Below, piece after piece: positions 3,367-58,052 of a DNA stretch of 64,000 nt. Position 1 is the first letter of the stretch, and each line of letters begins with the position of its first letter. Source of the stretch: Escherichia phage cardinal; sequence record PQ567651.1. One strand, given 5' to 3'. The position numbers were made by a program, and so were the translations under genes. The notes beneath the pieces were generated by a model, which searched no databases, was not told the DNA's origin, and was given only the letters and a program-made list of their open reading frames with translations.

Positions 3367-3390
3367 GATGTTAATCTCTTTTTCAGTGAG

Positions 3391-5243: not shown

Positions 5244-5285
5244 TTTAAGATAGCTTATCAGGTTTTAGTGCAATGTCAACCGTTT

Positions 5286-5648: not shown

Positions 5649-5674
5649 TGTGTTACCCTTTCTTTGATGGCCTG

Positions 5675-5695
5675 GCGGGAAACCATTTCCCGCCC
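5675..5695 (-). promoter_or_regulatory. GC-rich palindrome, same family
   Basis: ggcgggaaaccatttcccgcc plus ctatgtgata box, identical to the 2972-2992 copy. Confidence 0.55.
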
Positions 5696-5705
5696 TATGT
5701 GATAC

Positions 5706-5733
5706 ATCTTATCAGATTAAAAAACGTTGTCAA
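5706..5733 (-). promoter_or_regulatory. sigma70-like promoter (TTGACA, 16-nt spacer, TAAGAT)
   Basis: TTGACA at 5733-5728 and TAAGAT at 5711-5706 on the minus strand, same architecture as 3004-3031. Confidence 0.45.
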
Positions 5734-5752
5734 GAATATTTTTTAGATAATT

Positions 5753-6067
5753 TTAACTATATGATCCACATTGTTCGCAGTAGTGATCATCGTCGCCATC
5801 AGCTACCTGGCTGATAAAGTGATCTACTTTTGCTTTTAGGTTATTATAATTGTTTTCTACTTCCTTTAATCGCTCCTGATAGTAGCCCAGGGCTTTAATA
5901 TACGCCGCCTCTTCTGTTTTTTCACGCATGGCTAAATTCATGCCGCGCGTATCATCATACAGCCAAAAGCCATCGGTACATTCACTCATTGAAAGGGTAG
6001 GGCTTAACTCTTTATGATTAATTACCTTGCTCATAGTGTGCGCCTTATAGAATGATTGAAACAACAA
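5753..6067 (-). CDS. hypothetical protein with C-terminal cysteine cluster
   Basis: 104-aa ORF ending ...HYCEQCGSYS, possibly a small zinc-binding motif. Confidence 0.45.
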   Translation of the reverse strand: MLFQSFYKAHTMSKVINHKELSPTLSMSECTDGFWLYDDTRGMNLAMREKTEEAAYIKALGYYQERLKEVENNYNNLKAKVDHFISQVADGDDDHYCEQCGSYS

Positions 6068-6418
6068 TTGCTACAGTGATCCACACTGGAACGGCTAACA
6101 AAATAGCGTTAATCGTTCCAACCGTCAAGCTGTTTTCTTTCTTGATCATCGTTATCAACCTTTTATAAGTAATGTTATTGTGACGGTGGATTGTGGAGAT
6201 CCTCACCTTTGCCCGTCCTGCATTGCGCCCTCCTTTTGTTTATTGTCGTTGTGCCTCGCCCCCCTCGACAAGATGAATAATACGCTACCAGGTGAGGAAC
6301 GTCAACCCCTTTTTTAATCTTTTTTTCATTTCTTTTTTTTGCTTGCTATCTATAAAGGAAAGGGCTATTATCTTTCTACCACGCCAACCAGGGCGCACAT
6401 CAAAGAAAGGGCGATACC

Positions 6419-6685
6419 ATGACAAATACTACTTTACACCTCATGCACTCATTAGGCTGGCAAGGCGGCACGGTGCACCAGGTAGCAAGCGCAACGGGCT
6501 TAAAGGTTGAAACCGTTCTCAACCTGGGCGATCATAAGGTGGAAGAAATAGATCATTTTGATACGTTCGCAAATGGTTATCTATGGGCTTGCAGTGGCGG
6601 CGGGGAAAGCAAGATCCCACCAGGGGCGCGGGGTGATATATATTTTTGGTTAGGTGTCCTATCCTGGCAAGAAAACAAAAAATAA
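6419..6685 (+). CDS. hypothetical protein
   Basis: 88-aa ORF, first plus-strand gene after the divergent region. Confidence 0.4.
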   Translation: MTNTTLHLMHSLGWQGGTVHQVASATGLKVETVLNLGDHKVEEIDHFDTFANGYLWACSGGGESKIPPGARGDIYFWLGVLSWQENKK

Positions 6686-6835
6686 TATTGACAAGCCCAG
6701 GGATCGGGCTTATACTGTTTTACATACAGAAGAGGAAGCGCCACCCCCACGGCGTAAAGGCGGGGCTAACATACCAGGGCACTACTGGTTGGAAGGTTGA
6801 TCGCTGGTACAACGTATTTACAAAGGAGGTTAGCA

Positions 6836-7429
6836 ATGAAAAAAGTTTTTGGAGTAGGCATTAACGATAGTGCAAAGCCGATCAAAGGTTGTCGATTCTA
6901 TGCAACATGGCGCAACATGTTACAACGTTGTTATAGTGAATCATATCAGGACAAAAGGCCATCTTATAAAGGTTGTAGTGTTTGTGATGAATGGTTGACG
7001 TTTAGCACTTTTCGTGCTTGGATGGAACAGCAGGATCACCAGGGAAAACAATTAGATAAAGATATAATAACACCGGGTAATAAACTCTATTGTCCTGATC
7101 GTTGCGTATTTGTAACGCAAGAAATGAATAGTTTGTTAACAGTTACAAAGAGTAACAAAGGGGATCATCCTTTGGGTGTTTCATTTTTGAATCATAAACC
7201 ATTGCCGCGCCCTTATTTAGCAACAATACGTTATAATAACGTAGTGGAAAGATTAGGGTACTATGTAGATCCTTTATCCGCTCATTTGGCCTGGAATAGG
7301 CGCAAACGTGAAATAATCATAGAGATTATTAGTAATGAAACGGATTCAAGGATCGCCGCTGGCTTGGCTTTACGTGTTGACGCTCTCGATCTGGCTTATG
7401 AAAATAAAGCGGAAATAACTTGCTTATGA
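6836..7429 (+). CDS. putative homing-endonuclease-like / DNA-binding protein
   Basis: AGGAGG RBS then ATG at 6836; motif ATWRNMLQRCYSESY...YKGCSVCDEWLTFSTF, resembling the W..M..RC...Y.G..VC..W..F..F signature of phage HNH-associated proteins (assigned from memory). Confidence 0.4.
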   Translation: MKKVFGVGINDSAKPIKGCRFYATWRNMLQRCYSESYQDKRPSYKGCSVCDEWLTFSTFRAWMEQQDHQGKQLDKDIITPGNKLYCPDRCVFVTQEMNSLLTVTKSNKGDHPLGVSFLNHKPLPRPYLATIRYNNVVERLGYYVDPLSAHLAWNRRKREIIIEIISNETDSRIAAGLALRVDALDLAYENKAEITCL

Positions 7430-7432
7430 CGC

Positions 7433-7461
7433 TTGACAAGCGCCCGACAAGGGCGCATAAT
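7433..7461 (+). promoter_or_regulatory. sigma70-like promoter (TTGACA, 17-nt spacer, CATAAT)
   Basis: TTGACA at 7433-7438 and CATAAT at 7456-7461; fires into the non-coding repeat region. Confidence 0.45.
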
Positions 7462-7682
7462 CTCTTACATAGACAGGAACGCCTACCAATGGCGCTAAAC
7501 TTGGTGATGATAGCCGCAGGGCATCGACAGCTATAATCGCCGGTAGCTCGTCTAAAATAAATTTGTAAAGAAATGTAAAGATAAAAATAATCGCTTGCTT
7601 TTGTTGTTGGTTATGCTATTCTTATTGTATGGCGAGGGGACACGGGAGCGCGAGACAAACACCGCCCCTGCGCGTTATTTTC

Positions 7683-7800
7683 TAAATGAGAAAATTCTCA
7701 TTTGCTAATGATTCTCATTCTCTTACTGAGAATGATTATCACTTACATAATTAAATGATAATGATTCTCATTTACAAATGAGAATGATTATCATACGCAT
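7683..7800. promoter_or_regulatory. cluster of AT-rich palindromes resembling Fur boxes
   Basis: tgataatgattctcatt and aatgagaatgattatcat match the GATAATGATAATCATTATC Fur consensus at about 14-15 of 19 positions; 3-4 overlapping copies. Confidence 0.35.
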
Positions 7801-7810
7801 ACCTATAAAA

Positions 7811-8035
7811 ACACGAAATTGAACTTTTCATTTTTGATTTTTCTACGGAAAAAGGCAAAAAAACTTTAAATAAACTGGGGAATTTTTAAAAAATTGAAGT
7901 TTTCATTTTCAAAATCTGGATAGAAATACGTACAAAAACTTTAAATAATTTTGACCAAACTTGAACTTTTCATTTTCAAAATTTGTACCCAAAAATCTGT
8001 AAAAACTTTAAATAATTTTGTACTTTTTATAAAAA
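7811..8035. repeat. three tandem ~72-bp direct repeats (iteron-like)
   Basis: Each unit contains ttgaa(c/g)ttttcatttt(c/t)aaaat and aaaaactttaaataa; AT-rich, no ORF. Confidence 0.6.
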
Positions 8036-8171
8036 TGATTTTACTGTTCTGTTATAAGTAGTAGTTAAGAGATAGTATGCCTTTTAAAGATCAGATACCA
8101 TAGTCAAACAAACAAATTAAATACTTTATTAACAGAGTACAGAATAATATTTACTCTGGATATATTATTCA

Positions 8172-8210
8172 GAGGGTGGATTTCCGTACATGAAACCCAC
8201 ACCCCTTTTT
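8172..8210 (+). terminator. putative intrinsic terminator
   Basis: gggtggatttc / gaaacccac stem followed by ccccttttt; no plus-strand CDS upstream, so it may end a non-coding transcript. Confidence 0.4.
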
Positions 8211-8331
8211 ATAAAAATAAAAATTTTCAAAATATCAGTAAATATCAGATTGTGCTTTTAGATAAACAGCAAGGTCTGTATGCCATTTTCCTAAAAGATT
8301 TTGTCCTTTCCAACAGTCCTTATTTTCCACA

Positions 8332-8787
8332 TCACGATCCCACATTCCCATTTTTGATACCATAAATAGAATCATAAGGGCTTGCCTCTACGAACTCCTT
8401 ATCTGCGTAAGCGATAAGTTTATTTTTGAGATCTTCATTTTGTGTGTATTTAAGATACAAACCACGTTTGACAATCTTCTCCCGTAAAGAAGTCCAGGTA
8501 TCTTCATCATAATCTTTAACTAATCTGCCTAGACGTTTATAATATGCTTGTTCTTTTTCTCCTGTATATCTTAGATCTCCGGTTAAAATAGAAGATGCAA
8601 TATTGTAATCATAAAACAAACATGCTTTTCTCCACATCATATATTGTTCCACACAAGTAAATTCGACAGAACTTGTGATAGAATTATTATACTTGGGAGC
8701 TAAAGGTTCAATAAAAGATGATAGATACCAGTTGCTAAATTCATCTTTTGCCGAGAAAAAGAACACATACTTGTCAGTAATCCGCAT
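8332..8787 (-). CDS. NADAR (YbiA/DUF1768-like) domain protein, putative ADP-ribose N-glycosidase
   Basis: 151 aa; FFFS..DEFSN, CVEQYMMWRKA, YKRLGR, WTSLREKIVKRGLYLKYTQNEDLKNKL and SPYDSIYGIKNG align with the conserved blocks of E. coli YbiA. Confidence 0.65.
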   Translation of the reverse strand: MRITDKYVFFFSAKDEFSNWYLSSFIEPLAPKYNNSITSSVEFTCVEQYMMWRKACLFYDYNIASSILTGDLRYTGEKEQAYYKRLGRLVKDYDEDTWTSLREKIVKRGLYLKYTQNEDLKNKLIAYADKEFVEASPYDSIYGIKNGNVGS

Positions 8788-10185
8788 TTACACCTCCTTA
8801 TTGTATACTAATTTGCCACCATATTGTGTAACAATTTTTTGAAGATTTTCCAAATCAGAAACACTTACTGTTTCTGTATGACCATCTTTCAACTCTCTTG
8901 CCGTTAAAATACCAGTTTTTAATTTTTTCTTTATAGCTCTTTCAGCAGCCTTACATTGTTTCACTGTGCTAAAATCATATAAACAAATACGCTCCATAGG
9001 AAACATATTACAGCTATTTTGACGTTTTAATCGACTATCACTATTTTTAGCTATACCAAACTTAAGAGCAACTATAATATTATCATCCTTAACAATATTA
9101 ATATATAACTGCTGCTGACTATGACCAGCACACATAGGACAACCTCGACCGTGGCTTAATAAGGCATTAGCCCTCCCTGTCTGTTCCCCATGCACAAGAC
9201 AAAGATATTTAAACTTACCGTGACTTCTAGACGGTTTACCGATCCAACCTACCCAGACATACCCTTTCCCTTCTACTTCCTTTTTTACCCTGTAGGTAAT
9301 CTGATTTTCTGTATAGTGATAACTAGTTGCACAGCGGCAAGGGATACTTCCTTGTTTTAGGGGCCACCCTTTAGAGTAAAATTTACCATCGCAAACACCT
9401 GCTTGAACATATTCATCATGGGAGCAAACAGGACACTCAACCATCCATACTGCATCACGCTTGTTACGTTTCCCTGTATTGGTGAAGATAGTGCCTTCCT
9501 TAAATTTCCCTGTAGAAAAGAAATCTGCAATATGTTGATCGTCGGACATTGTTAGTGCCTTCCTTGTATTCTCATACCTACATAAAGGACAACCATAACC
9601 ACGTTTAAAATTGTTAATACTTGTAGTATCCCATTTATAACCACAGTGACACAACAAATCAAGTTTTGTTTTATGTCCTTTCCATTTTCCAACGTACCCT
9701 AACACCTGATACCCCTTCTTCTGTGCTATCTCTTCCAAGATCGGTAATTCTGTTTCCCATGCTAACGGTTTATTACTTGCACATGCCGGACAACCACGTC
9801 CATTCCTAAAATCAATAATGTTTGTGGTGTTCCACTCTCCATGTTTAGGGCAAATTATGCGAATTTTTGTTCGCACACCTCGCCACTCCTCGGCAAGACC
9901 TATAAAAGTAAACCCTCTTTCTTTAGCAATATCAACAAGGGAGATACATTCCTTTTCTTCTGTTACTTTTCTATGACCATTGCAATCGGAGCAACATTTA
10001 CCGCCTTTAGTTTTAAATACATTGATTATGGTACTTTCCCACTCTCCATGATCAGAGCAAGATAGCTTAAGCCTAGTCCTGCTACCTTTCCATTCACCAA
10101 CATAACCCAAGATTTGAATATTGTGATTTTTAGCAAGGGGTATTAATTCTTCTTTATATTGTTCCCATGATTTTAGTGCTACCAT
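8788..10185 (-). CDS. protein with five tandem zinc-ribbon-like repeats and a C-terminal T5orf172/GIY-YIG-like domain
   Basis: Five ~50-aa repeats of the form GY.G.WKG..T...L.C..HGEW......F..G.GC..C; C-terminus IVALKFGIAKNSDSRLKRQ...AERAIKKKL resembles the T5orf172 family. Confidence 0.5.
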   Translation of the reverse strand: MVALKSWEQYKEELIPLAKNHNIQILGYVGEWKGSRTRLKLSCSDHGEWESTIINVFKTKGGKCCSDCNGHRKVTEEKECISLVDIAKERGFTFIGLAEEWRGVRTKIRIICPKHGEWNTTNIIDFRNGRGCPACASNKPLAWETELPILEEIAQKKGYQVLGYVGKWKGHKTKLDLLCHCGYKWDTTSINNFKRGYGCPLCRYENTRKALTMSDDQHIADFFSTGKFKEGTIFTNTGKRNKRDAVWMVECPVCSHDEYVQAGVCDGKFYSKGWPLKQGSIPCRCATSYHYTENQITYRVKKEVEGKGYVWVGWIGKPSRSHGKFKYLCLVHGEQTGRANALLSHGRGCPMCAGHSQQQLYINIVKDDNIIVALKFGIAKNSDSRLKRQNSCNMFPMERICLYDFSTVKQCKAAERAIKKKLKTGILTARELKDGHTETVSVSDLENLQKIVTQYGGKLVYNKEV

Positions 10186-10223
10186 CTACTACTCCTTTTA
10201 TTAAATCTGGCATCAATACAAGA

Positions 10224-10246
10224 AAACCCGCCGAAGCGGGTTTTTA
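10224..10246. terminator. intrinsic terminator hairpin
   Basis: aaacccgccgaagcgggttttt with flanking A- and T-runs, between two minus-strand genes. Confidence 0.55.
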
Positions 10247-10259
10247 TTTGCTGGCTTAC

Positions 10260-11294
10260 TTAAAACACACTTGCCAAAGTTGCACCATTGGTGATAGTTG
10301 GTTCCAGAACAATACGGAAAGAATCTTCTGGATCATCACTAAACACAACGATTTTACCGCCTGTAATAAGGTCTGCTTTCATTTTTGTCGCATTCAATGG
10401 AATTCGAGCATCTCCTTCATCATCAAAAACCACGTAAGAGCTATTAGCAAGGGCTTCTTTAGAGTCTGCATCACTTGGAGATGACAAGTACACGTCTAGT
10501 GTGCACGAACCACCTAAAAAGATTGCAGGTGTGAAGTTATGCCAACTAGATACCCAGCTAACTTTCTGAAGTTTTCCATTAATAACAACGCTGCTGATAT
10601 CCCATTTATTACCACCACCTAAAGAAACACCCATCATAGAGATGCATTCTTTAAAGGATAAATCAGGGTAGAAATTAAGTTCTTCTACTATACCTTGGAT
10701 CACATCAAAGGACAACTCTAAACTTACATCCCAAAGTCTTTGGAAATTATCAAAGTGTGCTTTGTTATCCAGGTTTTTATCTAAATAGTCAATCATAGTT
10801 TCTAGTGAGATTTTATCATAATTAAAATTATAAAACACACGACTAGGACGATTTAAAAAGAATTCAGAGATAAAACCACTGTTTTTAGTCAGAATAAACA
10901 GTTTATTACCACTGCCAGTACCATCTAACAAAGTGAGAAGTGCTTCTTGATCTTGTTTCTTCTCATACACTTTATCAAACTCGTCAAAAATAATCACTGC
11001 TTTGTCGGTGATCTTGCTAATAAGTTCAATGAAATTAGCATCGCTGTAGGCTTGAGTAACCATAATAGTTGGAATACCTTCTTCTACAAGGTCACGACTA
11101 ATGAGTTTGGCTAACATAGTTTTACCACTGCCCTTAGTTCCTGTCAGGAGCAAACCTGTATTTTTACCTTGTGCACTCCGGCGATGGAATGTACGAATAA
11201 CGTGATTTGCTCGTTTTTCTGTTTCACCATACAGAACATCCGGTACACCTGTTAGATTACCACGGCTTAAAAAAATAATTGCCAAGGGGATCAC
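10260..11294 (-). CDS. AAA-type P-loop ATPase; N-terminal ~30 codons lie in another frame (to ~11388)
   Basis: Walker A GTKGSGKT and Walker B IIFDEFDK; clear paralog of 26400..27560; N-terminal homology continues in a different frame up to an RBS-preceded ATG at 11388. Confidence 0.6.
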   Translation of the reverse strand: MIPLAIIFLSRGNLTGVPDVLYGETEKRANHVIRTFHRRSAQGKNTGLLLTGTKGSGKTMLAKLISRDLVEEGIPTIMVTQAYSDANFIELISKITDKAVIIFDEFDKVYEKKQDQEALLTLLDGTGSGNKLFILTKNSGFISEFFLNRPSRVFYNFNYDKISLETMIDYLDKNLDNKAHFDNFQRLWDVSLELSFDVIQGIVEELNFYPDLSFKECISMMGVSLGGGNKWDISSVVINGKLQKVSWVSSWHNFTPAIFLGGSCTLDVYLSSPSDADSKEALANSSYVVFDDEGDARIPLNATKMKADLITGGKIVVFSDDPEDSFRIVLEPTITNGATLASVF

Positions 11295-11400
11295 GACTAA
11301 CAGTATAGAATCCAGGTGGAAGATAGTTAGATTCCACGCCCATATCTTTATTTACACTTACAATATCACCATAAATCGTGTATTTCATTTTAAACCCCTT

Positions 11401-11838
11401 TTATTTTTGTTGAGATGAACGAATTAAATCAGCAGCAAATTCAATCAGATACACTTTTGGTGCAATAATGATTTTTAGCCAATCAAAATTCGAAAAGAAA
11501 ATAACAAATCCTAAAAAGAAAAAGAAAGCACAGACAACAAGACCAACAATAGGTAAAGCAGATACTTCACCATAGCGATCTCGTGACCACAGGCATTCTT
11601 TATCTTTAATTGCTTTTACGAGGTTCCGTACAGCAATAAAAGTAATAAACATAAAGCAAATACTAAAAAGTTGCCATAAACCTGCGGATACTGCTTTCCA
11701 CAATAACAATTGATGGATTACTTCTGGAATTTGTTGTTTTCCAAACTCCACAACATCACTCATTGTTTGAATAGTGACGTTAACCATGTTCAGAAGTACA
11801 TCCGTTGCTTTATCTGCGATTGCGTTTGTTTTACTCAT
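11401..11838 (-). CDS. hypothetical membrane protein
   Basis: 145 aa with at least two hydrophobic helices (LWQLFSICFMFITFIAV, LPIVGLVVCAFFFFLGFVIFF). Confidence 0.45.
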   Translation of the reverse strand: MSKTNAIADKATDVLLNMVNVTIQTMSDVVEFGKQQIPEVIHQLLLWKAVSAGLWQLFSICFMFITFIAVRNLVKAIKDKECLWSRDRYGEVSALPIVGLVVCAFFFFLGFVIFFSNFDWLKIIIAPKVYLIEFAADLIRSSQQK

Positions 11839-12046
11839 TCTTTATTCCTCACTTACCTTTTAAGGAAACCAATCATAATGAAGAACCACATCCAGGCAGG
11901 AGAGATAATAAAGCCAAAGAAACCGCAAATAACCGCTTTCTTAATCTCTTCCAGACAACCCACCAGGAAAAGACCGAGTGAGACTACAATCCAGATAGCC
12001 ATAAATACTGTAACAAAGAAACTCATACCTTTCTCCCGTCTGTATT

Positions 12047-12298
12047 TTAAAATTCAACCACCACTTTATCGAGGTGCTCTGCTTCAACTTGATCTAATGT
12101 TAACACCTCAACTAAACCCTTGTCAATACCTAATTTAATAACATCAACATATTGTCCAAACAGATCCTGAATAGATATCTTGTGTTCGACAACAACCACT
12201 ACTTCATTCCCTTTTGTGAATTCTCTCCATACACGTCCACATTTGAAAATAAAGTCTGCTTCATCTGCTGTTATCATTTTAGGTTTGATACTTAACAT
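12047..12298 (-). CDS. hypothetical small protein
   Basis: 83-aa ORF; stop overlaps the start of the upstream gene. Confidence 0.4.
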   Translation of the reverse strand: MLSIKPKMITADEADFIFKCGRVWREFTKGNEVVVVVEHKISIQDLFGQYVDVIKLGIDKGLVEVLTLDQVEAEHLDKVVVEF

Positions 12299-45041: not shown

Positions 45042-48000
45042 ATGGGAGCTTTTACTTTCGACATTGAAAGTAACAACTTGCTTAATGACGAAAGTGTAGA
45101 TTACTTGGCAAGTCCATATCGTTTAAAAGATAGTTTTGCAATGCACTGTATTGTGTGCGAAAGTCATGAGACTGGAGAGATTATTGCTTTCCATGATGGT
45201 GATAAATATCTTTTCGATGGTCGTCCGTATATTGAGACTGACGGAAAGTATGAATACCGACTGGAGGAATATGAGCATTTAGAATATACCCATTTCCCTC
45301 TTAAAGATTTTCCTGATTTTGTAAATGGAACAGGTAAATTTAAAGGTAATTCAAACTATAAAATTACCAAAGTAGTTGGACATAACATCATTAACTTTGA
45401 CTTACTGGCAATTAAATTATTTTTTAAACTCAACTACAGTATTAAGTACAATACTTGGGGTAATAGTAACATTGAAATTTGTGATACTATGATCTTAAGT
45501 AAGACACTAAACCCTGATCGCTTCGGTGGTCATAGTCTGGCAGAGTTATCTAAGAAAGCTGGAGGGGATGTTAAAATTGATTTTAGAAAAAACATCCCTG
45601 AAACTGAAAGATTTAAAACATTTGCAGCAGATATGCTGTATTACTGTATTTACGATAACAAAGCTAACACCGCAGTGTTCCGTTATTTGATGGAAGAGTG
45701 GGGTGATTATAATAAGTGGTCTGAACCATTTAACTTAGAACAACGTGTAGCTGATATTATTACACGTCAAGAGCACCGTGGCTTTGCTTTCAATATGAAG
45801 CAAGCAGAAGATAATATTCGTGATCTGGATGCTCGAATGGAAGCATGTCGTTTAGAGGCAGAACCTGTGCTACCTCCTAAACCTGCTACTAAAGGTTATT
45901 TGAAATCATTCATTCCACCTAAACTACAGTTTAAAAAGAATGGTGAACCTTCAAGTAACATGATAAAGTTTGCAGAGAAACATTCTGGTGAACTTGTACA
46001 AAAAGAAGATGGTTGGTGGTTATTTGCATTAGGTAAAGAGTTTAAACTGCCTATTCCAGCAGAAGAACCTATTTGTGATCCTACAGTACCTGCTACTTTA
46101 GACGACACTACACATATTAAAAATTGGTTAGTTGGTTTAGGTTGGAGTCCATCTGAATATAAAGATAAAGATATCACTCTTAAATCTGGCACTAAGATTA
46201 AGAAAGATGAAGCACAAATGGAGAAAGCTATTCGTGACTATGTTGATCAAACGTTAGCATCTAACTTCTGCCAGGACAGATGTGATCATCTGGAGTGCAC
46301 ACCAGAAACTTTGGAATGGAAACTAAGAGATCGTATTGCTAAAGCTAAAGGTCGTGGTGTTAAAGTGCTTACTAACCCTTCCTTTACAAAAGGGCAAGAG
46401 AAAGATATTTGTCCTAATTTGGAAGCACTAGGTGAAAAGTTTCCTTATGCTACGCAGATTGTGCAGTATCTTACGTATAAACACCGTAGGAACTCTATTC
46501 TAGGGGGTGGTGCTGATTGGGAAGAAGATGAAGAGGATTACGATAAAGGTTATCTGGCAGCAGTAAGGGCTGATGGTCGTATACCAACCCCTGCTGCAAC
46601 GTGTGATGCAGCTACGTCTCGTATGAAACATAGGTTAGTAGCAAATATCCCACGTGTAACATCTCTGTACGGATATGAAATGCGTAATTTATTTGGTGTA
46701 GAAGTTCCAAAATACTTCCAAATTGGTTATGACTTTGATTCTCTTGAGGCAAAAATAGAATCACACTACTGTGTACCTATGGATGCACAAGCACTAACCC
46801 GTAAAGGTTGGGTTGGTTATCACGATCTACAAGAAGGGGATGAAATCTTAGGATATAACCCAGAAACAGGACTTAAAGAATGGACTAAAGTAAAAGGTAA
46901 GGTCTTCTATAAAAATAGTAAGACGTTTGAGATTAAAGGGAAATCACACACTTACCGTGCAACAGCAGATCACCGTTGGTATGTTAATACCCGTAGTAAA
47001 GGGAATACTTATGTGCCTAAAGTCAGAACAACTGCCGAGCTTTGCACAGGAGATAATATTATTTGTAATGCTCCATTTAACATGGAACAAGATCAGGTAA
47101 ATAGTTTAACTTCTGTTCAACAAGGTAAATGGGATGTTCCGTGGGTAGAGCGTGTAGTTAATATGTCTCATGCCGAGCGTGTGGCTTTCTTGGAAGGTTT
47201 TTTGATTGCGGATGGTTACTGGCATGAACATAAACAAAAACCTGTTTGGCGTTGGGCGCAGAACCCAGGTGAACTTTTTGAAGCAGCTTTAACTGCCTCG
47301 TACCTGGTGCATGGAGGCAATATCTCTGTAGCTTTCAATACAAAAGAGCAGAAAGTAAAAGTGGCAACATTGGCTAACCGCTCTCACATTCCTGTTCAAA
47401 GTTTGACTATTGAAGAGTGGGGTGTAGAGGATGTTTGGTGTCCACAAACAGAACTTGGTACGTGGGTCATGCGTCAGAAAGACTGCATTACCATCACAGG
47501 AAACTGTTGGCGGTACGAGCAGGAACCACACGAATATTGTAATGCTCTATTATTGGAAAAACCTAATGATGTTCATACAATGATGGCTCGACGTATTTCT
47601 GACACTATTGGTCGTAAGTTTGAACGAAGCCCTGCTAAATCTGTTAAGTATGGTATTACTTATGGTGCTCAAGCTGCAAAAGTAGCAAAAACTATAGGTA
47701 GTGATATGTATACAGGACAGCTTGTATACGATGCTTTCTGGGAAGCTGCAAAACCTCTTGCGCTTCTTAAAGAACGTCTGCATGATTTTTGGGTTAAAAC
47801 AGGTAAGAAATACATTCTTGGTATTGATGGTAGGAAAGTACCTACACGATCTGCACACGCAATACTTAACTCTCTGTTCCAGAGTGGTGGTGTTATTTGT
47901 GCAAAAAGAGCAATGGTTATCTACGACGATCTTATCGAAGAAGAAGGATTAGCTGTTGACTTTTTTGTTGATGACTGGAAAAATAAGTCATTCGTTCAAC

Positions 48001-48356
48001 AAATGATTGCATATCACGATGAAGCACAGCTTGAAGTAACTCGTGATCTGGTGCATTTTAAATGGTTCTCTAAAGAATCTTTAGGTTGGACTCAAGTTGA
48101 TGATCCAGAGGAACAAAAGAAAATTGATAAAGAATGTTTGGATAAAGTTAATGCCTGGAAAGAAGAGGAAGAGAAGCGTACTGGCAAGATTTGGGCTAAC
48201 GTACATGAATCTCCAAAAGGTGGTTGGTTTACAGCCTACAGTCGTGCTGGAGAATTAGCATCTATTGCTGTTAATAAAGCTGGTGAGTATTACAATCTTA
48301 ATGTACCTCTCACTGCTGGATACGATGTTGGTAGTTCATGGTCAACTTGTCACTGA
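45042..48356 (+). CDS. family A (Pol I/T7-like) DNA polymerase containing an intein
   Basis: N-terminal 3'-5' exonuclease motif FDIESNNL; motif A region GYDFDSLEAKIESHY | intein | CWRYEQ...; downstream AKSVKYGITYGAQAAKVAKTIG aligns with T7 Pol AKTFIYGFLYGAGDEKIG. Confidence 0.85.
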   Translation: MGAFTFDIESNNLLNDESVDYLASPYRLKDSFAMHCIVCESHETGEIIAFHDGDKYLFDGRPYIETDGKYEYRLEEYEHLEYTHFPLKDFPDFVNGTGKFKGNSNYKITKVVGHNIINFDLLAIKLFFKLNYSIKYNTWGNSNIEICDTMILSKTLNPDRFGGHSLAELSKKAGGDVKIDFRKNIPETERFKTFAADMLYYCIYDNKANTAVFRYLMEEWGDYNKWSEPFNLEQRVADIITRQEHRGFAFNMKQAEDNIRDLDARMEACRLEAEPVLPPKPATKGYLKSFIPPKLQFKKNGEPSSNMIKFAEKHSGELVQKEDGWWLFALGKEFKLPIPAEEPICDPTVPATLDDTTHIKNWLVGLGWSPSEYKDKDITLKSGTKIKKDEAQMEKAIRDYVDQTLASNFCQDRCDHLECTPETLEWKLRDRIAKAKGRGVKVLTNPSFTKGQEKDICPNLEALGEKFPYATQIVQYLTYKHRRNSILGGGADWEEDEEDYDKGYLAAVRADGRIPTPAATCDAATSRMKHRLVANIPRVTSLYGYEMRNLFGVEVPKYFQIGYDFDSLEAKIESHYCVPMDAQALTRKGWVGYHDLQEGDEILGYNPETGLKEWTKVKGKVFYKNSKTFEIKGKSHTYRATADHRWYVNTRSKGNTYVPKVRTTAELCTGDNIICNAPFNMEQDQVNSLTSVQQGKWDVPWVERVVNMSHAERVAFLEGFLIADGYWHEHKQKPVWRWAQNPGELFEAALTASYLVHGGNISVAFNTKEQKVKVATLANRSHIPVQSLTIEEWGVEDVWCPQTELGTWVMRQKDCITITGNCWRYEQEPHEYCNALLLEKPNDVHTMMARRISDTIGRKFERSPAKSVKYGITYGAQAAKVAKTIGSDMYTGQLVYDAFWEAAKPLALLKERLHDFWVKTGKKYILGIDGRKVPTRSAHAILNSLFQSGGVICAKRAMVIYDDLIEEEGLAVDFFVDDWKNKSFVQQMIAYHDEAQLEVTRDLVHFKWFSKESLGWTQVDDPEEQKKIDKECLDKVNAWKEEEEKRTGKIWANVHESPKGGWFTAYSRAGELASIAVNKAGEYYNLNVPLTAGYDVGSSWSTCH
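46770..47504 (+). mobile_element. intein (245 aa) with LAGLIDADG-like endonuclease motif in DNA polymerase
   Basis: Starts CVPMDAQALT, ends ...ITITGN with +1 Cys; internal VAFLEGFLIADGYW resembles a LAGLIDADG motif. Confidence 0.65.
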
Positions 48357-50553: not shown

Positions 50554-51285
50554 ATGAGCGAATTTGTAAACAACACCGCATTAAACTACCTGCAAACCCT
50601 CGAAAGCAATAGTGTAGATTTGATTCTTACTGACCCGCCATATGCTATTTCTCGTGACACAAATTTTCAGTCTGGAGAGCCTACTGGAAAAGATACGGAT
50701 AGATTCCGTGTATCTTACAACTTTGGTGATTGGGATGTTGTAGATATTCCTTACTTTAAAGAAGTATTCAAAGAAGCCTACAGGGTGCTTAGAAAAGGTG
50801 GTACTTGCATAGTTTGGTATGATATCTGGAAGATCCAGGAGCTACGTGAAATCCTTGAACCGCTTGGTTTTCGTATGTTCCGTACTATCGAATGGATTAA
50901 AACAAACCCTGTACCCATCAACAGTGGTGTTAACTACCTTAGTAACGCTAAAGAGATGGCTATTGTTTGTGTTAAAGGTTCGAAGCCAACCTTCAATGCT
51001 TCCTACCATAAGGGTGTGTTTGAGTATCCTATCTATCAAGGAGCAGATCGTTTTCATCCAACACAAAAACACTTGACTTTGTTTTGTGACCTTATTAATA
51101 TACACACCAACGAAGGAGATGTAGTCTTAGACTTCTTCTCTGGAAGTGCAACAACACAAGTTGCGGCACTTTTAACAGGTAGAGAATACTTAGGCTGTGA
51201 AGCCGATGTAAATATTTTTAAGCAAGCGGAGGAACGACTAAATGAGTACACTGAACAGCAAAATCACCCTGAAAGCACTGATTAA
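50554..51285 (+). CDS. DNA N6-adenine / N4-cytosine methyltransferase (beta class)
   Basis: Motif IV DLILTDPPYAIS near the N-terminus and AdoMet-binding VLDFFSGSATT near the C-terminus. Confidence 0.75.
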   Translation: MSEFVNNTALNYLQTLESNSVDLILTDPPYAISRDTNFQSGEPTGKDTDRFRVSYNFGDWDVVDIPYFKEVFKEAYRVLRKGGTCIVWYDIWKIQELREILEPLGFRMFRTIEWIKTNPVPINSGVNYLSNAKEMAIVCVKGSKPTFNASYHKGVFEYPIYQGADRFHPTQKHLTLFCDLINIHTNEGDVVLDFFSGSATTQVAALLTGREYLGCEADVNIFKQAEERLNEYTEQQNHPESTD

Positions 51286-51673
51286 CAATGGTATGAACCT
51301 GGACTCTGGTCTGTCTCCAAAGATTTCTATGGCACGACTGGAACAAGTTACTGGTCTTCGTCAAGTAAGTAATGGCGGTAAGATTATTCGTGATGACGCT
51401 GTACCTTTTAATAAATTTCAGATTGAACGTCACTACGATCCTGTAACTGCAAGTCTCACTGGTGTAACTTTCTCAGGTTATCGTACTGCCGGATACCAGC
51501 GTAAGGTTGTAGCTGAACGTATTAAGAGTCGCAAACAGAAAATTGCAACATTGAAGAAACTGGTAGAGAAAGATGTTTCAGAACTTCTTAACCTGTATGA
51601 AACTCTTGAAACAAAAGGTGAAGATCATAAACTCTTCTCTAAAGAAGATGTAAGCGTAATTTTCACTGATTAA
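51242..51673 (+). CDS. hypothetical protein
   Basis: 143-aa ORF overlapping the methyltransferase 3' end; true start may be further in. Confidence 0.4.
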   Translation: MSTLNSKITLKALINNGMNLDSGLSPKISMARLEQVTGLRQVSNGGKIIRDDAVPFNKFQIERHYDPVTASLTGVTFSGYRTAGYQRKVVAERIKSRKQKIATLKKLVEKDVSELLNLYETLETKGEDHKLFSKEDVSVIFTD

Positions 51674-51683
51674 GATAAAAGAA

Positions 51684-51710
51684 AAGGAGCCTATTGGCTC
51701 CTTTTTGTTT
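51684..51710. terminator. bidirectional intrinsic terminator between convergent blocks
   Basis: aaggagcc-tatt-ggctcctt flanked by an A-run and a T-run; separates plus-strand replication genes from minus-strand tail genes. Confidence 0.6.
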
Positions 51711-53595
51711 ATGTAACATTGACTGTAAATCTGACAAGAGGTGATAACACGTCATTATCAGCATCATAGTGTGCAACATCAAACGCTGTTGTACCTGCTG
51801 CAAATCCATATTGTTCAACCTGATCTGCATAAGTAAATGTGTAAGTGTTAGTATCCAGGGTTTGTTCTGTAAGAGTTGCTGTTGTGAGGACGTTTACATT
51901 TCGGAAGTAATGTTTAGTATATCCTGCTGGTTCCCAAGAGATAATTGCATCTTGGTTAGCTTGTCTTACAGCGGCTCCTCCTGTTGGAACAGACATATCA
52001 ACCCAAACAGGTGACGTTGATGTTAAATCTGTACCGTCTGCTGCTGATTTAGCAAGTTTTGTAGCTGCTGTTTGGTATACAGAAGAAATATAATGGATAC
52101 GACCATCAATACCTTCTTCATAAACATAACCACTGTAACGTTCAGCACCATCTACCCAAGAACCAATGATAACATCATCACGTGCTGTAGAGATGGTTCT
52201 TTGTACATTTCTGTACTTCTGCCAATCCACACCATTAACTTCTACACCATATAAATAAGAACGTCCTAGGATCTGCCAAACAATTTTTGCTTGAGAAGCA
52301 GGAACTATTGTACGCATCTTATCAAAGATAGCTATCGTAGCATCATGGTAACGTGTAGTGTTACTGTACCTACCTGCAACAGTCGAAGATGCTGATACAG
52401 CATCATTTTCACCTTGTCCCCAAATAATTGCTTTAACCTTACTTGCATAAGGTGTGACTTTAGTGATAAAGTTAGTTAAGCATGGCCCATCTGCTGTGTT
52501 ATCCAGATCATACCAGTAGTTGTCTGGTGTACCTGTTCCAGCTTTATCGTCAGCATATTTATCTGCTGCTGATGATCCAGAAGCTGTATTTAACGGAAGA
52601 ACTTCAGCATTTGCTAAACCACGTTGCGTAGCATATGCATTACGGGCTGTTGTGCTACCCATTGCTGCTTTATTTGCACCAGATAGTTCTGTAAAGTGTG
52701 CATTTACGTTATCTTGTCCAGCAAAGACAATAACTTCTTTAATGAACGAATCATCTGTAGCTATTGAGTTATTAAAGATAACGGCTGCTGCTTTGGTGCT
52801 CTTAACGCTAATTTTAAGGTATGTTGGAGCAAACCCATAAAGAGGAATAGAGTCAGAGATATCAAAGTAGGCGTAAGTATTCGTGGTTGTTGTAGTCCAC
52901 TGAACACTATTATTACTTAAATCTAATACTTCTACAGTATAAGTATCACCATCTAGCGGATCAGCTACATCCCAAGCAACACGAACGTCTCCATAGCTGT
53001 TTGCCACGGCTGTTACATTAGAGATAACAGGAATAGCATTAACACCTAAATAAGAACTATCAGAGGCCACCACTGTTCCTTGATAAGTTGCAGTACAACC
53101 TATACGGCAATTACCATCTTTAAGAGCAGTTATTAATCCTGTAGGGCTTACAGTAGCTACTTCTGGATCTGTTGTGGTGTACGTAATTACCATGTCTGGA
53201 AGATCTTTAGCACCTTCTGGACTGATTGTAGCAACCAACTGTTGAGTAGTGCCTACATCCATAGCCGATAGACTTTCAGAGTACACACTTAATTCTGAAG
53301 CATAACCACCAGATTGATCAGTTAAGACAGCACCTAAATTATTTTTAGCTGTCATTATTGCATCAAAACCACCTTCGGCAACAAACTCCATCATACCACT
53401 ATTATCTATAACCATTTTGGTATTATCTGAAGATGAAAAAGCTATATCAAATAATGCACCATCTTCCGGTGTAACTGTGTATGTCAGTTGTTTTTTACCA
53501 CCAACTATTGCAATACCAATAGAGGAAGTAGTTATAGATGTAGCTGTTACTACTGAAGCTGATGTTGTTGACATAAATAAAGGAATAGGATACAT
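51709..53595 (-). CDS. tail fibre / tailspike protein with Big_2-like domain and SASA/SGNH-like esterase domain
   Basis: YTTTDPEVATVSPTGLITALKDGNCRI (bacterial Ig-like); VIVFAGQDNVNAHF and KAIIWGQGENDA resemble the GQSNM and QGESD blocks of sialate-O-acetylesterase-type esterases. Confidence 0.55.
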   Translation of the reverse strand: MYPIPLFMSTTSASVVTATSITTSSIGIAIVGGKKQLTYTVTPEDGALFDIAFSSSDNTKMVIDNSGMMEFVAEGGFDAIMTAKNNLGAVLTDQSGGYASELSVYSESLSAMDVGTTQQLVATISPEGAKDLPDMVITYTTTDPEVATVSPTGLITALKDGNCRIGCTATYQGTVVASDSSYLGVNAIPVISNVTAVANSYGDVRVAWDVADPLDGDTYTVEVLDLSNNSVQWTTTTTNTYAYFDISDSIPLYGFAPTYLKISVKSTKAAAVIFNNSIATDDSFIKEVIVFAGQDNVNAHFTELSGANKAAMGSTTARNAYATQRGLANAEVLPLNTASGSSAADKYADDKAGTGTPDNYWYDLDNTADGPCLTNFITKVTPYASKVKAIIWGQGENDAVSASSTVAGRYSNTTRYHDATIAIFDKMRTIVPASQAKIVWQILGRSYLYGVEVNGVDWQKYRNVQRTISTARDDVIIGSWVDGAERYSGYVYEEGIDGRIHYISSVYQTAATKLAKSAADGTDLTSTSPVWVDMSVPTGGAAVRQANQDAIISWEPAGYTKHYFRNVNVLTTATLTEQTLDTNTYTFTYADQVEQYGFAAGTTAFDVAHYDADNDVLSPLVRFTVNVT

Positions 53596-53612
53596 TTAAT
53601 CTCCTTAAACAA

Positions 53613-53632
53613 TAAGCCCCCGAAGGGGCTTT
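53613..53632 (-). terminator. intrinsic terminator
   Basis: agcccc-cgaa-ggggct followed on the minus strand by ttattgttt. Confidence 0.5.
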
Positions 53633-53634
53633 GA

Positions 53635-55596
53635 TTATGTGCGTTTAGCAACAATAGCATCCACGTAATCACCAACACCACAATATGTTAGTTGTAGTAT
53701 TGTTACTCCGTTAGGATTTGTATTAATATCACTAGAACCAATTACTTTGTAAGATGGGTCTAAAGTAACAGTACGACCCCCAGTGGCATCTTGGATAAGA
53801 TAAACTATTGCAGAGAATGGTTTAGGTTTTGTGCTATCTTCGACACCAGGCCATGCTTTTATAGTAGAGTTACCAGTAAGATTCAACACATTCATGTTAT
53901 GTGTTCCTGGAGGTGTCCAGTCCCCTGTAACAGAGTTGTTGGTGTATGCTGTAACCTCTATAAAATTAGTTGTTACTTTTGTTGGAACTATATCTTGACC
54001 ATCTACAGAACTAGTGAGTTCTTCCCATGCTCCATCTTTACGAGCATAGATCTTACCGTCACTAGGTGCATCTGTGATGCTAGGTAGTGTACCTTGAGAA
54101 GTCCAGACAGTTGCAGATGTTTTTAAGAACACCTCACCAGTGGAGATATTAAAGGCATAATCACCTTGTTTACCATCACTAGAAATTGGATCTGTTGTTT
54201 TAACAATCCAATTTGCACCATCCGTACCGTTAGTACCAGCGTCACCTTTCTCACCCTTATCACCTTTCAAACTACCCATATCTACATATTCAGCAGTTTG
54301 AGTTTGTTCATTATAGGTGTAAATGTAAAGATGACCTGTATCTTCCGTCAGATAAGCATCACCGTAATTGGCTGTAGGAGGAAGCGCACTTGCAGACGCA
54401 ACGTGTCCTTTTGCAGTGATTGGAGTACCAGCTAAACGACCAACATTTGTCCACTCTGTGGCTCCTTGCAACCAGACCCAAAGTTCATTATTGATCAGAT
54501 AACCATCACCCTCTTCTCCAGTTTGTGGTAGTTCAGAAGTGTCAGTCAGAATATCAATAATGGTCAACCCTGCACCAGTTGGCCCCGTCAAGCCTTGTAT
54601 ACCCTGCTTACCTTGATCACCCTTGTCTCCCTTATCACCTTTTTCTCCTTTCAGAGAGGCAATATATTCGTCAATAGTACCAACGTTACCAGCGTTTAAC
54701 CAGACTTGATAAGCTGAATCACCAGTGTTACCCTTATCTCCTTTGTCGCCTTTATCTCCTTTTGGCCCCACTATAGCACCCATATTGATCCATTCTACAC
54801 CGTTTGACACGTATAGATATGTACCAATACTCCATGCTTGAGATGTGTTTCCAGGAGATGCAGAAGGAAGATCTGAAACGGAATTAGCTGCACCTTGGTA
54901 ATCAAAACCATTAGCATTGTTACCTGGTACACCTTGTGGCCCCTCTGGGCCAGGCTCCCCTTTATCACCTTTAATTGAAGCAAGATAATCTAGTTCTGTA
55001 CCTTGGTTTCCTGCTGCAAGCCAAACTTGATAAGCTGATTTACCTTCTGGCCCCTGTGAGTTTACTTTTCTCCAAGCAGTACCATCCCAAGCATACATAT
55101 TCTCGCCTACAATCCATGCATCTCCTGCATTGTTTCCGGTTGTAGGTAATTGGTTGGTATTAGATAGTGTCCCTAGCAGCTTTAATGGAGCACCTGGATC
55201 ACCTTTTAAAGAAGCCAACCAGTCTGTCTCAGTACCTTGGAAACCATTGTCTACGGCAATCTGGTAAGCTGATTTACCAGCTTCTGGAATGGATTCTCTA
55301 AGATCTTCAATTTCAGCTTCAATAGCATCTAATTCTGATTCTATTTGAGCAATGTCATCTGCATTACCCACATTTTTCCAAGCTGTATCTGAAATCCCTC
55401 CAGTAGATGTAGGAGTAGAGTTAGCAGGTACAACTTTAGGTAGAGAACCTTTCCACTGATAGTAGTTACCGTCAGTTTCAAAGAGCAATGCTTCACGAGC
55501 ATCTCTTAAGGTAAAACCACTTGCAAAACTTCTACGCTTTCTATAGCGAGACTCTACCATGTCTGCAATGGCACTATTTGGACGTGTTAAAATCAC
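53635..55596 (-). CDS. tail fibre protein with collagen-like Gly-X-Y tracts and phage tail-fibre repeats
   Basis: GDKGEPGPEGPQGVPG, GPKGDKGDKGDKGNTG, GEKGDKGDKGDQGKQGIQG tracts; three copies of SAYQ(V/I)..(A/N)G..GTE.D(W/Y)(L/I)ASLKG. Confidence 0.75.
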   Translation of the reverse strand: MILTRPNSAIADMVESRYRKRRSFASGFTLRDAREALLFETDGNYYQWKGSLPKVVPANSTPTSTGGISDTAWKNVGNADDIAQIESELDAIEAEIEDLRESIPEAGKSAYQIAVDNGFQGTETDWLASLKGDPGAPLKLLGTLSNTNQLPTTGNNAGDAWIVGENMYAWDGTAWRKVNSQGPEGKSAYQVWLAAGNQGTELDYLASIKGDKGEPGPEGPQGVPGNNANGFDYQGAANSVSDLPSASPGNTSQAWSIGTYLYVSNGVEWINMGAIVGPKGDKGDKGDKGNTGDSAYQVWLNAGNVGTIDEYIASLKGEKGDKGDKGDQGKQGIQGLTGPTGAGLTIIDILTDTSELPQTGEEGDGYLINNELWVWLQGATEWTNVGRLAGTPITAKGHVASASALPPTANYGDAYLTEDTGHLYIYTYNEQTQTAEYVDMGSLKGDKGEKGDAGTNGTDGANWIVKTTDPISSDGKQGDYAFNISTGEVFLKTSATVWTSQGTLPSITDAPSDGKIYARKDGAWEELTSSVDGQDIVPTKVTTNFIEVTAYTNNSVTGDWTPPGTHNMNVLNLTGNSTIKAWPGVEDSTKPKPFSAIVYLIQDATGGRTVTLDPSYKVIGSSDINTNPNGVTILQLTYCGVGDYVDAIVAKRT

Positions 55597-55613
55597 TTTA
55601 CTACTCCTTTTAT

Positions 55614-55636
55614 AAAGGGGCTTTCGCCCCTTTTTA
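55614..55636 (-). terminator. intrinsic terminator
   Basis: ggggc-tttc-gcccc flanked by T-runs. Confidence 0.5.
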
Positions 55637-55637
55637 A

Positions 55638-58052
55638 TTAAGCATTGTTGACAGTAACAAAAGTAACAGGGTTCAGAGCTTTAATTTGTGTATTCTCTGC
55701 TGTAGGTGTTACAATTGGATCTGCAATATCTATTGTGTACAAACTATTTGTCACATATGTAGCACGTGCTATAGTTGTCACAAGATCGCCGCCATTTGCA
55801 CCTGCACCTGGAATAACAATCTTAGTACCTGCTGCTTTAGCGTAGCCATTACTAGCCCAGTTTAAAGCATTAGACTGTAGATAGGTTTGACCTGTAACAG
55901 TTGCTTTTATTTTCTCGTTGGCACTAAAGAAAGCACCACCTACTGTAACAACATGTTTTTTACCGCTTGCACAATGAATAACTGTTCCAGTAGGGAATTC
56001 ACGCCCACCTGGGAATTCATCATAAGCTGTAAAATATTGTTCAGAAATAGTAGTTAAAACTGGCCCACGATGACCTGTACCATCAACAGCAGTTGGAACA
56101 CCAAAGTTATTTCCAACCTGATCGCAACGATCAGTGTAGATTTTAGCAAAAGAAACTGTTGTTTCATCTCCGCTAAGTGCTGTGCATCCTACCCACTTCA
56201 TATACGTGAATTGACTGCGAGTATAGAAACCGCCACCACTTCCTTCTCCGCTTCCGTGTTGACCAATAAAGTCAATACTACGGCAACGAATATTATTAAA
56301 GGTAGAGCTAGATGGTAGCCCACGCCATTTAAAAACATTACAATTGATATTACTAACAATTGTAGAGTTTTCCCAGGCATCTGATCCAGCCGTTGCAATC
56401 TCAATTGAAGATTCTGGAATATCCAAATTCTTAATTGTAAAGTTAATTGGTGGCCCCGCATATCTTCCACTGTTAACACCCCAGTCAATAAAGACCATGC
56501 GTGTTGAAACAGATGGATCATTAAGCAGATAACCAGTTAAACCATCAACTTCAAAATCTTGGCATCCGTATAATGCAACACCACAAGTAGTTAAACCTGT
56601 ACCTGTTGAAACTGCTGTGTTAGGATAAACTTCATTATCACGTATCGTGAAGTTTTTACCCATTTCAACGTGTAGACATTGACGGCAATTGTAAACCCTA
56701 TTCCCAACGATACTGAAGTTACGTACATATTGTGAATCAGGAACATCAACACCATATGGGCCACTACCTGCTACACCAATACCAATACCCCAGTTTGCAC
56801 CTTGTCCAGAAGCATCTACGTTAGCAATGTGGTTATTCTCGATAATCAAACCTTCAGTGTAGTGCTTTTGAACTACGTTAAGTTCAATAGCATCACCTTT
56901 GATATCGTGAATATAGTTGTTAGAGTAACGCCCATAGGTCATTACTTCTCCAGTACCTTGTTGCAGGATCGCATATTTACAACCATACATTTCGTTGTAA
57001 CTGAAGTCCAACGTACCTTCACTTGTCATTGCTTGCATTAAGAATGCTGCTGTAGATGTGGCGTTGGAGAAGATATTACGATAGAATCGGCAATCCCCAC
57101 CTAACATCTTAACATAACATTTTTCAAAGCGAACGTTTTCAATCCAGCAGGATACAGTAGAAATCATTGTTCCACCGTTACCAGTGAATGTACCACCATA
57201 CCAACGAATACCAGACATAGCAATTGAGCTTGTGAATCTATAATTCTTATCTGCACGTACTTGAATGTTATTCGTGTTAGCGAAAGTAATGGTTTTTAAA
57301 ATTGCTTGAGTATCATCGGTAACTCCATCACCAATTGCACCAAACTGCTCAGGCGTTACAAAGTATTGAGCTTGTAACAGGTTGCCTCCAGATGGAAGAC
57401 CAACCATTGCTGCACCAGTGGTAGATGACAAAAGGTTTTTCTCTACGTAAGAAGTAGAGGCTGTTGTTTTACCAATAAAAGCAAACAATTTGTTAGGTAG
57501 ACCAGTAGACGGATCTAAACCTAATGGTTCTGCCAGAATAATTTTACTATCTTTGATAGTAAATGCTTCACCTTGAATCTGAATTACACCGTTAATGGTG
57601 ACAATAGCATTATCAAAGATATAAGGAGGACTGATTTCTGTTTCATATCCTGTAGCACCTTTAAAATACCAAGGATATACATCTGAAGCTAACTGTTCAG
57701 TTTTAAGAGCGTACAGAGTCCAGTTACTGTCTCCTACAGGTGTACCCTGCATAGGTACAGGGTTCGCAGTAGTGGCAGATGGAGCATAATAGTACCCACT
57801 CAAGATACCGTTTTCAAAATAACGTAACTGGTTAAATACAGTTTCAGTTGATCCTGCTGACCAAGCAACAGGACTCTTAAAGAAGAAGTTATCAACAAGT
57901 GCTTTACGCAGTGTAGGTATTAAACCTGTTTCGGTTTCTACAGTTGCTGTAGCATCCCCATTAATAACATCATGCATCTGGTTAGACGAGAATATAACCA
58001 GATCAACACCTTGTTCTAGTGTCGTAGCAGGATATGTTGGAAAATTCGCCAT
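55638..58052 (-). CDS. tailspike protein (right-handed beta-helix / pectate-lyase-like)
   Basis: 804 aa; repetitive beta-helix-like segments (NNYIHDIKGDAIELN, IIENNHIANV, FSIVGNRVYN), typical of phage depolymerase tailspikes. Confidence 0.65.
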   Translation of the reverse strand: MANFPTYPATTLEQGVDLVIFSSNQMHDVINGDATATVETETGLIPTLRKALVDNFFFKSPVAWSAGSTETVFNQLRYFENGILSGYYYAPSATTANPVPMQGTPVGDSNWTLYALKTEQLASDVYPWYFKGATGYETEISPPYIFDNAIVTINGVIQIQGEAFTIKDSKIILAEPLGLDPSTGLPNKLFAFIGKTTASTSYVEKNLLSSTTGAAMVGLPSGGNLLQAQYFVTPEQFGAIGDGVTDDTQAILKTITFANTNNIQVRADKNYRFTSSIAMSGIRWYGGTFTGNGGTMISTVSCWIENVRFEKCYVKMLGGDCRFYRNIFSNATSTAAFLMQAMTSEGTLDFSYNEMYGCKYAILQQGTGEVMTYGRYSNNYIHDIKGDAIELNVVQKHYTEGLIIENNHIANVDASGQGANWGIGIGVAGSGPYGVDVPDSQYVRNFSIVGNRVYNCRQCLHVEMGKNFTIRDNEVYPNTAVSTGTGLTTCGVALYGCQDFEVDGLTGYLLNDPSVSTRMVFIDWGVNSGRYAGPPINFTIKNLDIPESSIEIATAGSDAWENSTIVSNINCNVFKWRGLPSSSTFNNIRCRSIDFIGQHGSGEGSGGGFYTRSQFTYMKWVGCTALSGDETTVSFAKIYTDRCDQVGNNFGVPTAVDGTGHRGPVLTTISEQYFTAYDEFPGGREFPTGTVIHCASGKKHVVTVGGAFFSANEKIKATVTGQTYLQSNALNWASNGYAKAAGTKIVIPGAGANGGDLVTTIARATYVTNSLYTIDIADPIVTPTAENTQIKALNPVTFVTVNNA

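Follow-up and report, generated by a model that had tools for sequence, protein, structure and literature searches.

A SASA-type SGNH-fold domain with aspartate at the nucleophile position in a putative accessory tail protein of a phi92-like Escherichia phage

The SASA/CE6 family (PF03629) includes NanS (3PT5), At4g34215 from Arabidopsis (2APJ) and CAC0529 from C. acetobutylicum (1ZMB), free or periplasmic SGNH-fold enzymes in which the nucleophile is a serine. In SASA enzymes, the block I glutamine beside the catalytic serine forms an inverted oxyanion hole, the block III sequence (H)QGE contributes a hydrogen-bond network and block V contains a histidine; E. coli NanS lacks the block V aspartate (PMC9487903). 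The SGNH fold is also found in receptor-binding proteins, as in the esterase tailspikes of phages G7C (gp63.1, 4QNL) and Moo19/B2, where it is aimed at host surface glycans. In the OSK domain of Drosophila Oskar the fold serves binding, not hydrolysis, with RNA as the ligand, and in CE2 esterases, which mostly retain catalysis, the active site also binds cellulose (PMC2661963). Both are unrelated in sequence and context to the domain described here.

The closest described system is the gp65-type tail protein of phage N4 (9LC0, 9YF4), represented in phage phiAxp-3 by ORF69, which contains an FN3–SASA-like–FN3 module. N4 gp65 is a receptor-binding sheath subunit of ten domains that forms a heterodimer with gp64, and its modules of this type build a non-contractile sheath around the tail tube (PMC13434306). 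In the phiAxp-3 homologue of gp65, residues 795–1195 are both sufficient and essential for binding LPS (PMC5862860). N4 gp65 spans ~1380 aa. It opens with a sheath domain and also contains part of a TIM barrel, two copies of the SASA-like domain and additional FN3 repeats; its second SASA-like copy, the counterpart of the LPS-binding phiAxp-3 fragment, lacks the SASA catalytic motifs.

The window analysed here is a stretch of 64,000 nucleotides from Escherichia phage cardinal (PQ567651.1), a phi92-like E. coli myovirus of the genus Justusliebigvirus. Positions 51000–56000 show 98.7% identity to phages VEcB, ZYD, Eryne and muut. The final gene of the minus-strand tail-fibre operon in this region encodes a protein of 628 residues, with an FN3–SASA–FN3 module like that of gp65. 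The features of the locus, in window coordinates, are as follows.

51682–51705, strandless: bidirectional terminator-like hairpin, common to the 628-aa gene and the convergent plus-strand gene at 51242–51673
51709–53595, minus strand: complete ORF of 628 aa with ATG start and TAA stop, putative accessory lateral tail protein
51712–52011, minus strand: FN3-like domain b, aa 529–628, a mosaic segment
52012–52764, minus strand: SASA-type SGNH-fold domain, aa 278–528, without the serine nucleophile
52093–52095, minus strand: H501 in the motif RIHY, probable equivalent of the block V catalytic histidine
52402–52416, minus strand: block III, Q394-G-E396-N-D398, the SASA (H)QGE motif
52570–52578, minus strand: block II, G340-S-S
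52708–52719, minus strand: block I, G293-Q294-D295-N296, with D295 (GAT, 52711–52713) at the position of the nucleophilic serine and Q294 as the oxyanion-hole glutamine
52765–53010, minus strand: FN3-like domain a, aa 196–277, assigned by alignment to an N4 gp65 repeat and removed by a deletion in phi92
53026–53538, minus strand: two Ig-like (Big_2) domains, ~aa 20–95 and ~aa 100–190 (Pfam Big_2, 4e-13, two stretches)
53601–53606, minus strand: ribosome-binding site AAGGAG, 7 nt ahead of the ATG
53614–53631, minus strand: terminator-like GC hairpin (AAGCCCCTTCGGGGGCTT, then a T-rich stretch) that separates the collagen-like fibre gene from the 628-aa gene
53635–55596, directly upstream in the operon: collagen-repeat fibre with a TSP1/Gp66-type N-terminal domain, orthologous to phi92 gp151
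55638–58052, further upstream: colanidase tailspike, orthologous to phi92 gp150

Terminator-like hairpins lie on both sides of the 628-aa gene, and the one ahead of it (53614–53631) suggests that the gene would be expressed by read-through, should this hairpin act as a terminator. The convergent plus-strand ORF at 51242–51673 encodes 143 aa, is orthologous to phi92 gp154 and overlaps the end of a DNA methyltransferase ORF (50554–51285, plus strand) by ~44 nt (51242–51285). Elsewhere in the window, an ORF for a family-A DNA polymerase (45042–48356, plus strand; 1104 aa), whose phi92 counterpart, gp159, carries an annotation of similarity to T7-like polymerases, has a long internal insert of intein/Hint-like appearance that runs roughly from CVPMDAQALTRKGW to TITGNCWRYE, as judged by eye from the translation.

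In phi92 the ortholog of the 628-aa protein is the disrupted gp152/gp153, and BME3, alia and PaulScherrer carry a 939-aa 'tail fiber/tail protein' of which the 628-aa form is the short allele. GenBank records name the gene product variously as 'tail protein', 'lateral tail fiber protein' (BASEL phages), 'tail carbohydrate esterase' (ALITA) and 'non-contractile tail sheath' (KKE7M). The protein begins with a short conserved peptide, which is followed by two Big_2 Ig-like domains, one FN3-like domain, the SASA-type SGNH domain and a second FN3-like domain. The Ig-like assignment is also supported by PHROG Ig-domain families and by matches to the Ig-like structures 6n1a and 7quz, and FN3-like domain a aligns to the FN3-like repeat that precedes the second SASA-like copy of N4 gp65. 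Pfam and PHROG comparisons of the 628-aa protein detected no anchor, coiled-coil, beta-helix or collagen segment. The sheath domain PF23844 and the TIM barrel PF23845, both of which Pfam finds in N4 gp65 and gp64, were likewise not found by Pfam in this protein, and the window contains no gp64 or gp66 homologue. Furthermore, unlike gp65, the 628-aa protein has Big_2 domains towards its N-terminus and comes from a myovirus, whose sheath is contractile, and its identity to gp65 is only ~23–30%.

The description of the gene product as a tail fibre in the initial annotation is therefore only loosely right. The position in the locus and the GenBank names agree with it, but the protein, like N4 gp65, is built of Ig, FN3 and SGNH domains in series, has no recognisable trimerisation or anchor domain and, as the short allele, is without the fibre-tip domain of the 939-aa alleles. 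Similarly, of three receptor-recognition genes said to lie in tandem, the collagen-like fibre and the tailspike are confirmed, and the present gene is a putative third. We conclude that the 628-aa protein is an accessory product of this lateral-fibre locus. Its place as the last gene of the fibre operon and the gp17-like tip of its 939-aa alleles favour a role in the tail, where the protein would be located in the virion.

The family to which the SASA-type domain belongs was collected by an exhaustive HMMER search with aa 270–628, which returned 77 representatives at the 50% clustering level and was used in place of a word-indexed protein search that gave only 2 and 5 matches. Thirty domains from this family form alignment A1. 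The AlphaFold model of aa 270–628 computed from A1 has a pLDDT of 94.2 and a pTM of 0.90; structural readings rest on this alignment-based model, and a single-sequence model of the whole protein (pLDDT 33) was discarded. The modelled domain is a three-layer alpha/beta/alpha sandwich with a five-stranded parallel sheet, in which the block I residue lies where beta-1 ends and helix 1 starts, and the last helix follows block V. It thus has the SGNH fold that was proposed from sequence. The top match of the PDB sequence search was unexpected: the 1382-aa N4 gp65 'non-contractile tail sheath' (9lc0_I, E 6e-25). Foldseek likewise identified gp65 as the closest solved structure (E 3e-26, TM 0.78), and the A1 profile matched gp65 at 4e-112 and the SASA-family structures 2apj and 1zmb at 3e-5 and 8e-4. 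Against Pfam SASA, the 628-aa protein itself scores 15.2–16.2 bits, under the gathering cut-off of 24.8, whereas its Avunavirus ortholog reaches 25.0 bits and 21 of the 30 A1 members individually have E ≤ 0.01 (best 1.3e-13). Homology of the 628-aa protein to PF03629 is therefore supported indirectly, via family members and the Avunavirus ortholog.

The motif VIVFAGQDNV (aa 288–297), singled out in the initial annotation for its aspartate at the nucleophile position, and the accompanying QGEND block (aa 394–398) are both present. The alignment column of D295 contains serine in 24 of the 30 A1 domains, and D295 aligns with Ser19 of NanS. The A1 consensus around the active-site blocks reads AGQSNA, WaQGEnDA and (I/V)HY. 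In the comparison with NanS, profile–profile alignment recovered only block III, and a permissive hmmsearch added block I: NanS VLTVAGQSNAMAY aligns to VIVFAGQDNVNAH, and NanS WMQGEFD to WGQGEND. The histidine was not alignable with His301 of NanS by sequence. Q294 and Q394-G395-E396 also align to SGQSNM and WYQGESD of 2apj, and Q294 to AGQSNA of NanS. The block II glycine is kept in 25 of 30 family members and the histidine in 27 (90%); H501 is at the topologically expected place in the model and, as in NanS, has no aspartate at position -3. No replacement serine occurs within block I (AGQDNVNAH). Q294, G340, Q394-G-E396, D398 and the probable block V histidine H501 are all kept, so the nucleophile appears to be the sole difference from an active SASA enzyme.

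Aspartate occupies the nucleophile position in every Justusliebigvirus allele examined. It is also found in the ~49% identical Avunavirus protein (Av-05, 18-1-2, TH18), where the motif is GGDN. Avunavirus is the only other lineage with aspartate and, in neighbour-joining trees computed with the nucleophile column removed, is the exclusive sister of Justusliebigvirus in 290 of 300 bootstraps; the pair nests among relatives with GQSN (Ser) and GQAN (Ala). This topology indicates that the change from serine to aspartate arose once, ahead of the split between the two genera. In the Avunavirus protein, Q294 has since been replaced by G, G340 by I and Q394 by L, a pattern to be expected had the common ancestor already ceased to be catalytic.

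Loss of the serine is recurrent in the phage-tail family, in which D, A, M, E or V occupies its position and gp65-type proteins contain degenerate second copies. All five of the residues Q294, G340, Q394, E396 and H501 are retained in 20 of 24 serine-bearing domains but in only 1 of 5 other domains without serine (Fisher p=0.013). On these alignments, the simplest reading is that catalysis was lost along with the serine, whereupon the other active-site residues would have been free to drift in some lineages.

The Justusliebigvirus domain is not decaying and is under purifying selection. Between the window and three 939-aa alleles, it shows 0–2 amino acid changes in 251 residues, and its dN/dS of 0.03–0.04 is the lowest of four regions, on small counts of at most 14 synonymous versus 2 non-synonymous changes. 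Across all domains of the 628-aa protein dN/dS is 0.03–0.19, and 53 of 56 close relatives have an intact ORF at a coverage of at least 80%.

The 628-aa form of the protein is found in the window and in phages muut, VEcB, Eryne and arall, and the 939-aa form in BME3, PATM, inny, alia and the BASEL phages. The 311 additional residues of the long form show homology to the tip of tail-fibre gp17 (9occ, 1e-19), the head-spike fibre of RcGTA (6tb9, 6e-14) and the C-terminal end of the tail protein encoded at the syntenic position in Phapecoctavirus. Relative to the 939-aa alleles, dS is 0.06–0.1 upstream and ~1.1 from ~aa 529, in FN3-like domain b. This sharp jump, where the allele types switch, points to recombination at ~aa 529. 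In the type phage phi92 (FR775895.2, piece positions 5001–6663), a 226-nt deletion removes aa 197–272 and a 2-nt insertion lies near aa 334, leaving three reading frames annotated as gp152 and gp153; neither is mentioned in the 2026 phi92 cryo-EM study. As phi92 is infectious with this pseudogene, the 628-aa protein is dispensable, at least on the laboratory host of phi92. At the syntenic position, Phapecoctavirus vB_Ec-G1 (piece positions 2714–5386) has a tail protein of 890 aa in which an RCC1-like beta-propeller at the N-terminus is combined with Big_2 domains and a gp17-like tip, and a SASA-like domain is absent. The last gene of the fibre locus is thus a modular cassette in which middle and end domains are swapped between genera. 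A link between allele length and use of the NGR glycan was considered, since Eryne, a short-allele phage, shows poor growth on K-12 lacking O-antigen; muut, which also carries the short allele, was isolated on K-12 MG1655, and the link is not supported.

The best explanation, which we hold with moderate confidence, is that the SASA-fold domain is a non-catalytic module, lectin-like or adhesive, on an accessory tail protein. In this view the domain descends from active acetyl-esterases with the family consensus GQSN, QGE.D and His, and the ancestor from which the Justusliebigvirus and Avunavirus proteins derive acquired aspartate in place of the nucleophilic serine, so that the domain is most likely no longer a serine esterase. 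The folded, selected module would have been kept to bind a host surface glycan via the old substrate pocket and, alternatively or additionally, may act as a rigid structural unit. The main positive support for glycan binding is the distant (~23% identity) LPS-binding fragment of phiAxp-3. The A1 profile places the degenerate second SASA-like copy with its FN3 domain at residues 730–1068 of the phiAxp-3 protein, and another FN3 domain at 1093–1170; the binding fragment therefore largely corresponds to the module homologous to aa 274–628, although its inclusion of extra FN3 repeats weakens the analogy. A conceivable but rather unlikely alternative is that the domain binds no ligand itself and acts purely as a structural spacer, extending or stiffening the protein and positioning the Ig-like domains and the tip of the long alleles. 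Such a spacer would accord with the sheath built by the homologous N4 modules (PMC13434306; Foldseek TM 0.78), and the strong purifying selection would equally fit a role in packing or assembly. The dedicated fibre-tip receptor-binding domain of the long alleles also suggests that specificity resides elsewhere, but the short allele has no such tip, and its SASA and FN3 modules form the distal end. Nor would a mere spacer need the pocket-lining residues Q294, QGE and H501, though the QGE network is partly structural, and LPS binding by the homologous phiAxp-3 fragment likewise argues for a ligand.

The intact hallmarks other than serine tell against the non-catalytic reading, as they would be equally expected if the pocket still performed Asp–His chemistry. 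Asp295, His501 and the oxyanion hole might then de-O-acetylate a host glycan or catalyse a related reaction, with the aspartate either attacking as a nucleophile through its carboxylate or activating water as a general base. Such a retained enzyme is improbable, but it keeps some probability because every other part of the SASA machinery is intact and under strong conservation in the window phage. The aspartate itself has stayed the same in two genera whose proteins are 49% identical, even as neighbouring residues changed (GQDN versus GGDN), and one GenBank record names the protein an esterase. Aspartate nucleophiles are, moreover, established in the dehalogenases and epoxide hydrolases of another hydrolase fold, the alpha/beta-hydrolases. 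To our knowledge, however, no SGNH or SASA enzyme has an aspartate nucleophile. Carboxylate attack on an ester would yield an unfavourable mixed anhydride, and close GQAN relatives keep everything else, which indicates that the scaffold can persist without catalysis. The SGNH review also describes no enzyme with an aspartate nucleophile (PMC9487903). Slightly less probable again is a working Asp295–His501 centre with an intact oxyanion hole that constitutes the first carboxylate SGNH/SASA hydrolase and modifies a glycan of the host, for example the N4 glycan receptor, which is common to phi92-like phages and N4; were this so, the conservation of aspartate across two genera would mark a new mechanism, not a dead site. 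Least probable, and indeed very unlikely, is that the short allele is a decaying, functionless remnant left after loss of a receptor-binding tip. The 311-aa tip is absent from the window allele and present in the 939-aa alleles and the syntenic Phapecoctavirus protein, the phi92 copy is broken, and the gene sits after a terminator-like hairpin; yet the gene has a good ribosome-binding site, is intact in nearly all close relatives and has low dN/dS in all of its domains. Thus, of the two possibilities raised in the initial annotation, a receptor-modifying fibre or a dead binding module, the evidence favours the latter, and an active de-O-acetylating fibre is unsupported.

A 'glycan deacetylase lateral tail fibre' is said to be common to N4, Vequintavirinae and phi92-like phages (PMC8594841, PMC8669472). 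The 628-aa protein was considered as this fibre and rejected, as the deacetylase was aligned to N4 Gp64, a Pfam TIM barrel, of which the window has no homologue. In N4 (NC_008720, 52000–70153), gp65 lies at 8044–12192 and gp64 at 6758–8011 within that piece, both on the minus strand. The first SASA-like copy of gp65 (aa 439–602) comprises blocks I–III only, with FAGESQV, which has serine in the nucleophile column, and WGQGDQDA. The C-terminal third that this copy lacks, with a block V-like GQIHF, matches gp64 aa 15–76, and the Pfam NCTSP TIM-barrel model is likewise split between gp65 aa 374–416 and gp64 aa 109–407. As both models are split across the two genes, the gp64–gp65 heterodimer may rebuild a TIM barrel and possibly an active SASA-type esterase in trans.

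In the literature searched, neither the serine-to-aspartate change nor an esterase-like domain in Justusliebigvirus tail proteins was found described. The finding is a variant of a known theme, that of SGNH domains on phage receptor-binding proteins and of enzyme folds reused as binders. It is a modest and unsurprising refinement of an already annotated gene, whose SASA domain exchanged its serine for aspartate long ago and is most likely sugar-binding or structural. The GenBank name 'tail carbohydrate esterase' is probably wrong in the catalytic sense. The distinction between enzyme and binder matters for annotation and for host-range engineering, as phi92-like phages are broad-host-range 'Swiss army knife' phages and therapy candidates. 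If the aspartate were catalytic, it would represent a new mechanism for the SGNH superfamily. More broadly, the FN3–SASA–FN3 module of N4 gp65 falls, within the SASA esterase family, in a sizeable branch from phage tails, and the repeated loss of the nucleophile in this branch offers a natural example of an enzyme fold reused for binding or structure.
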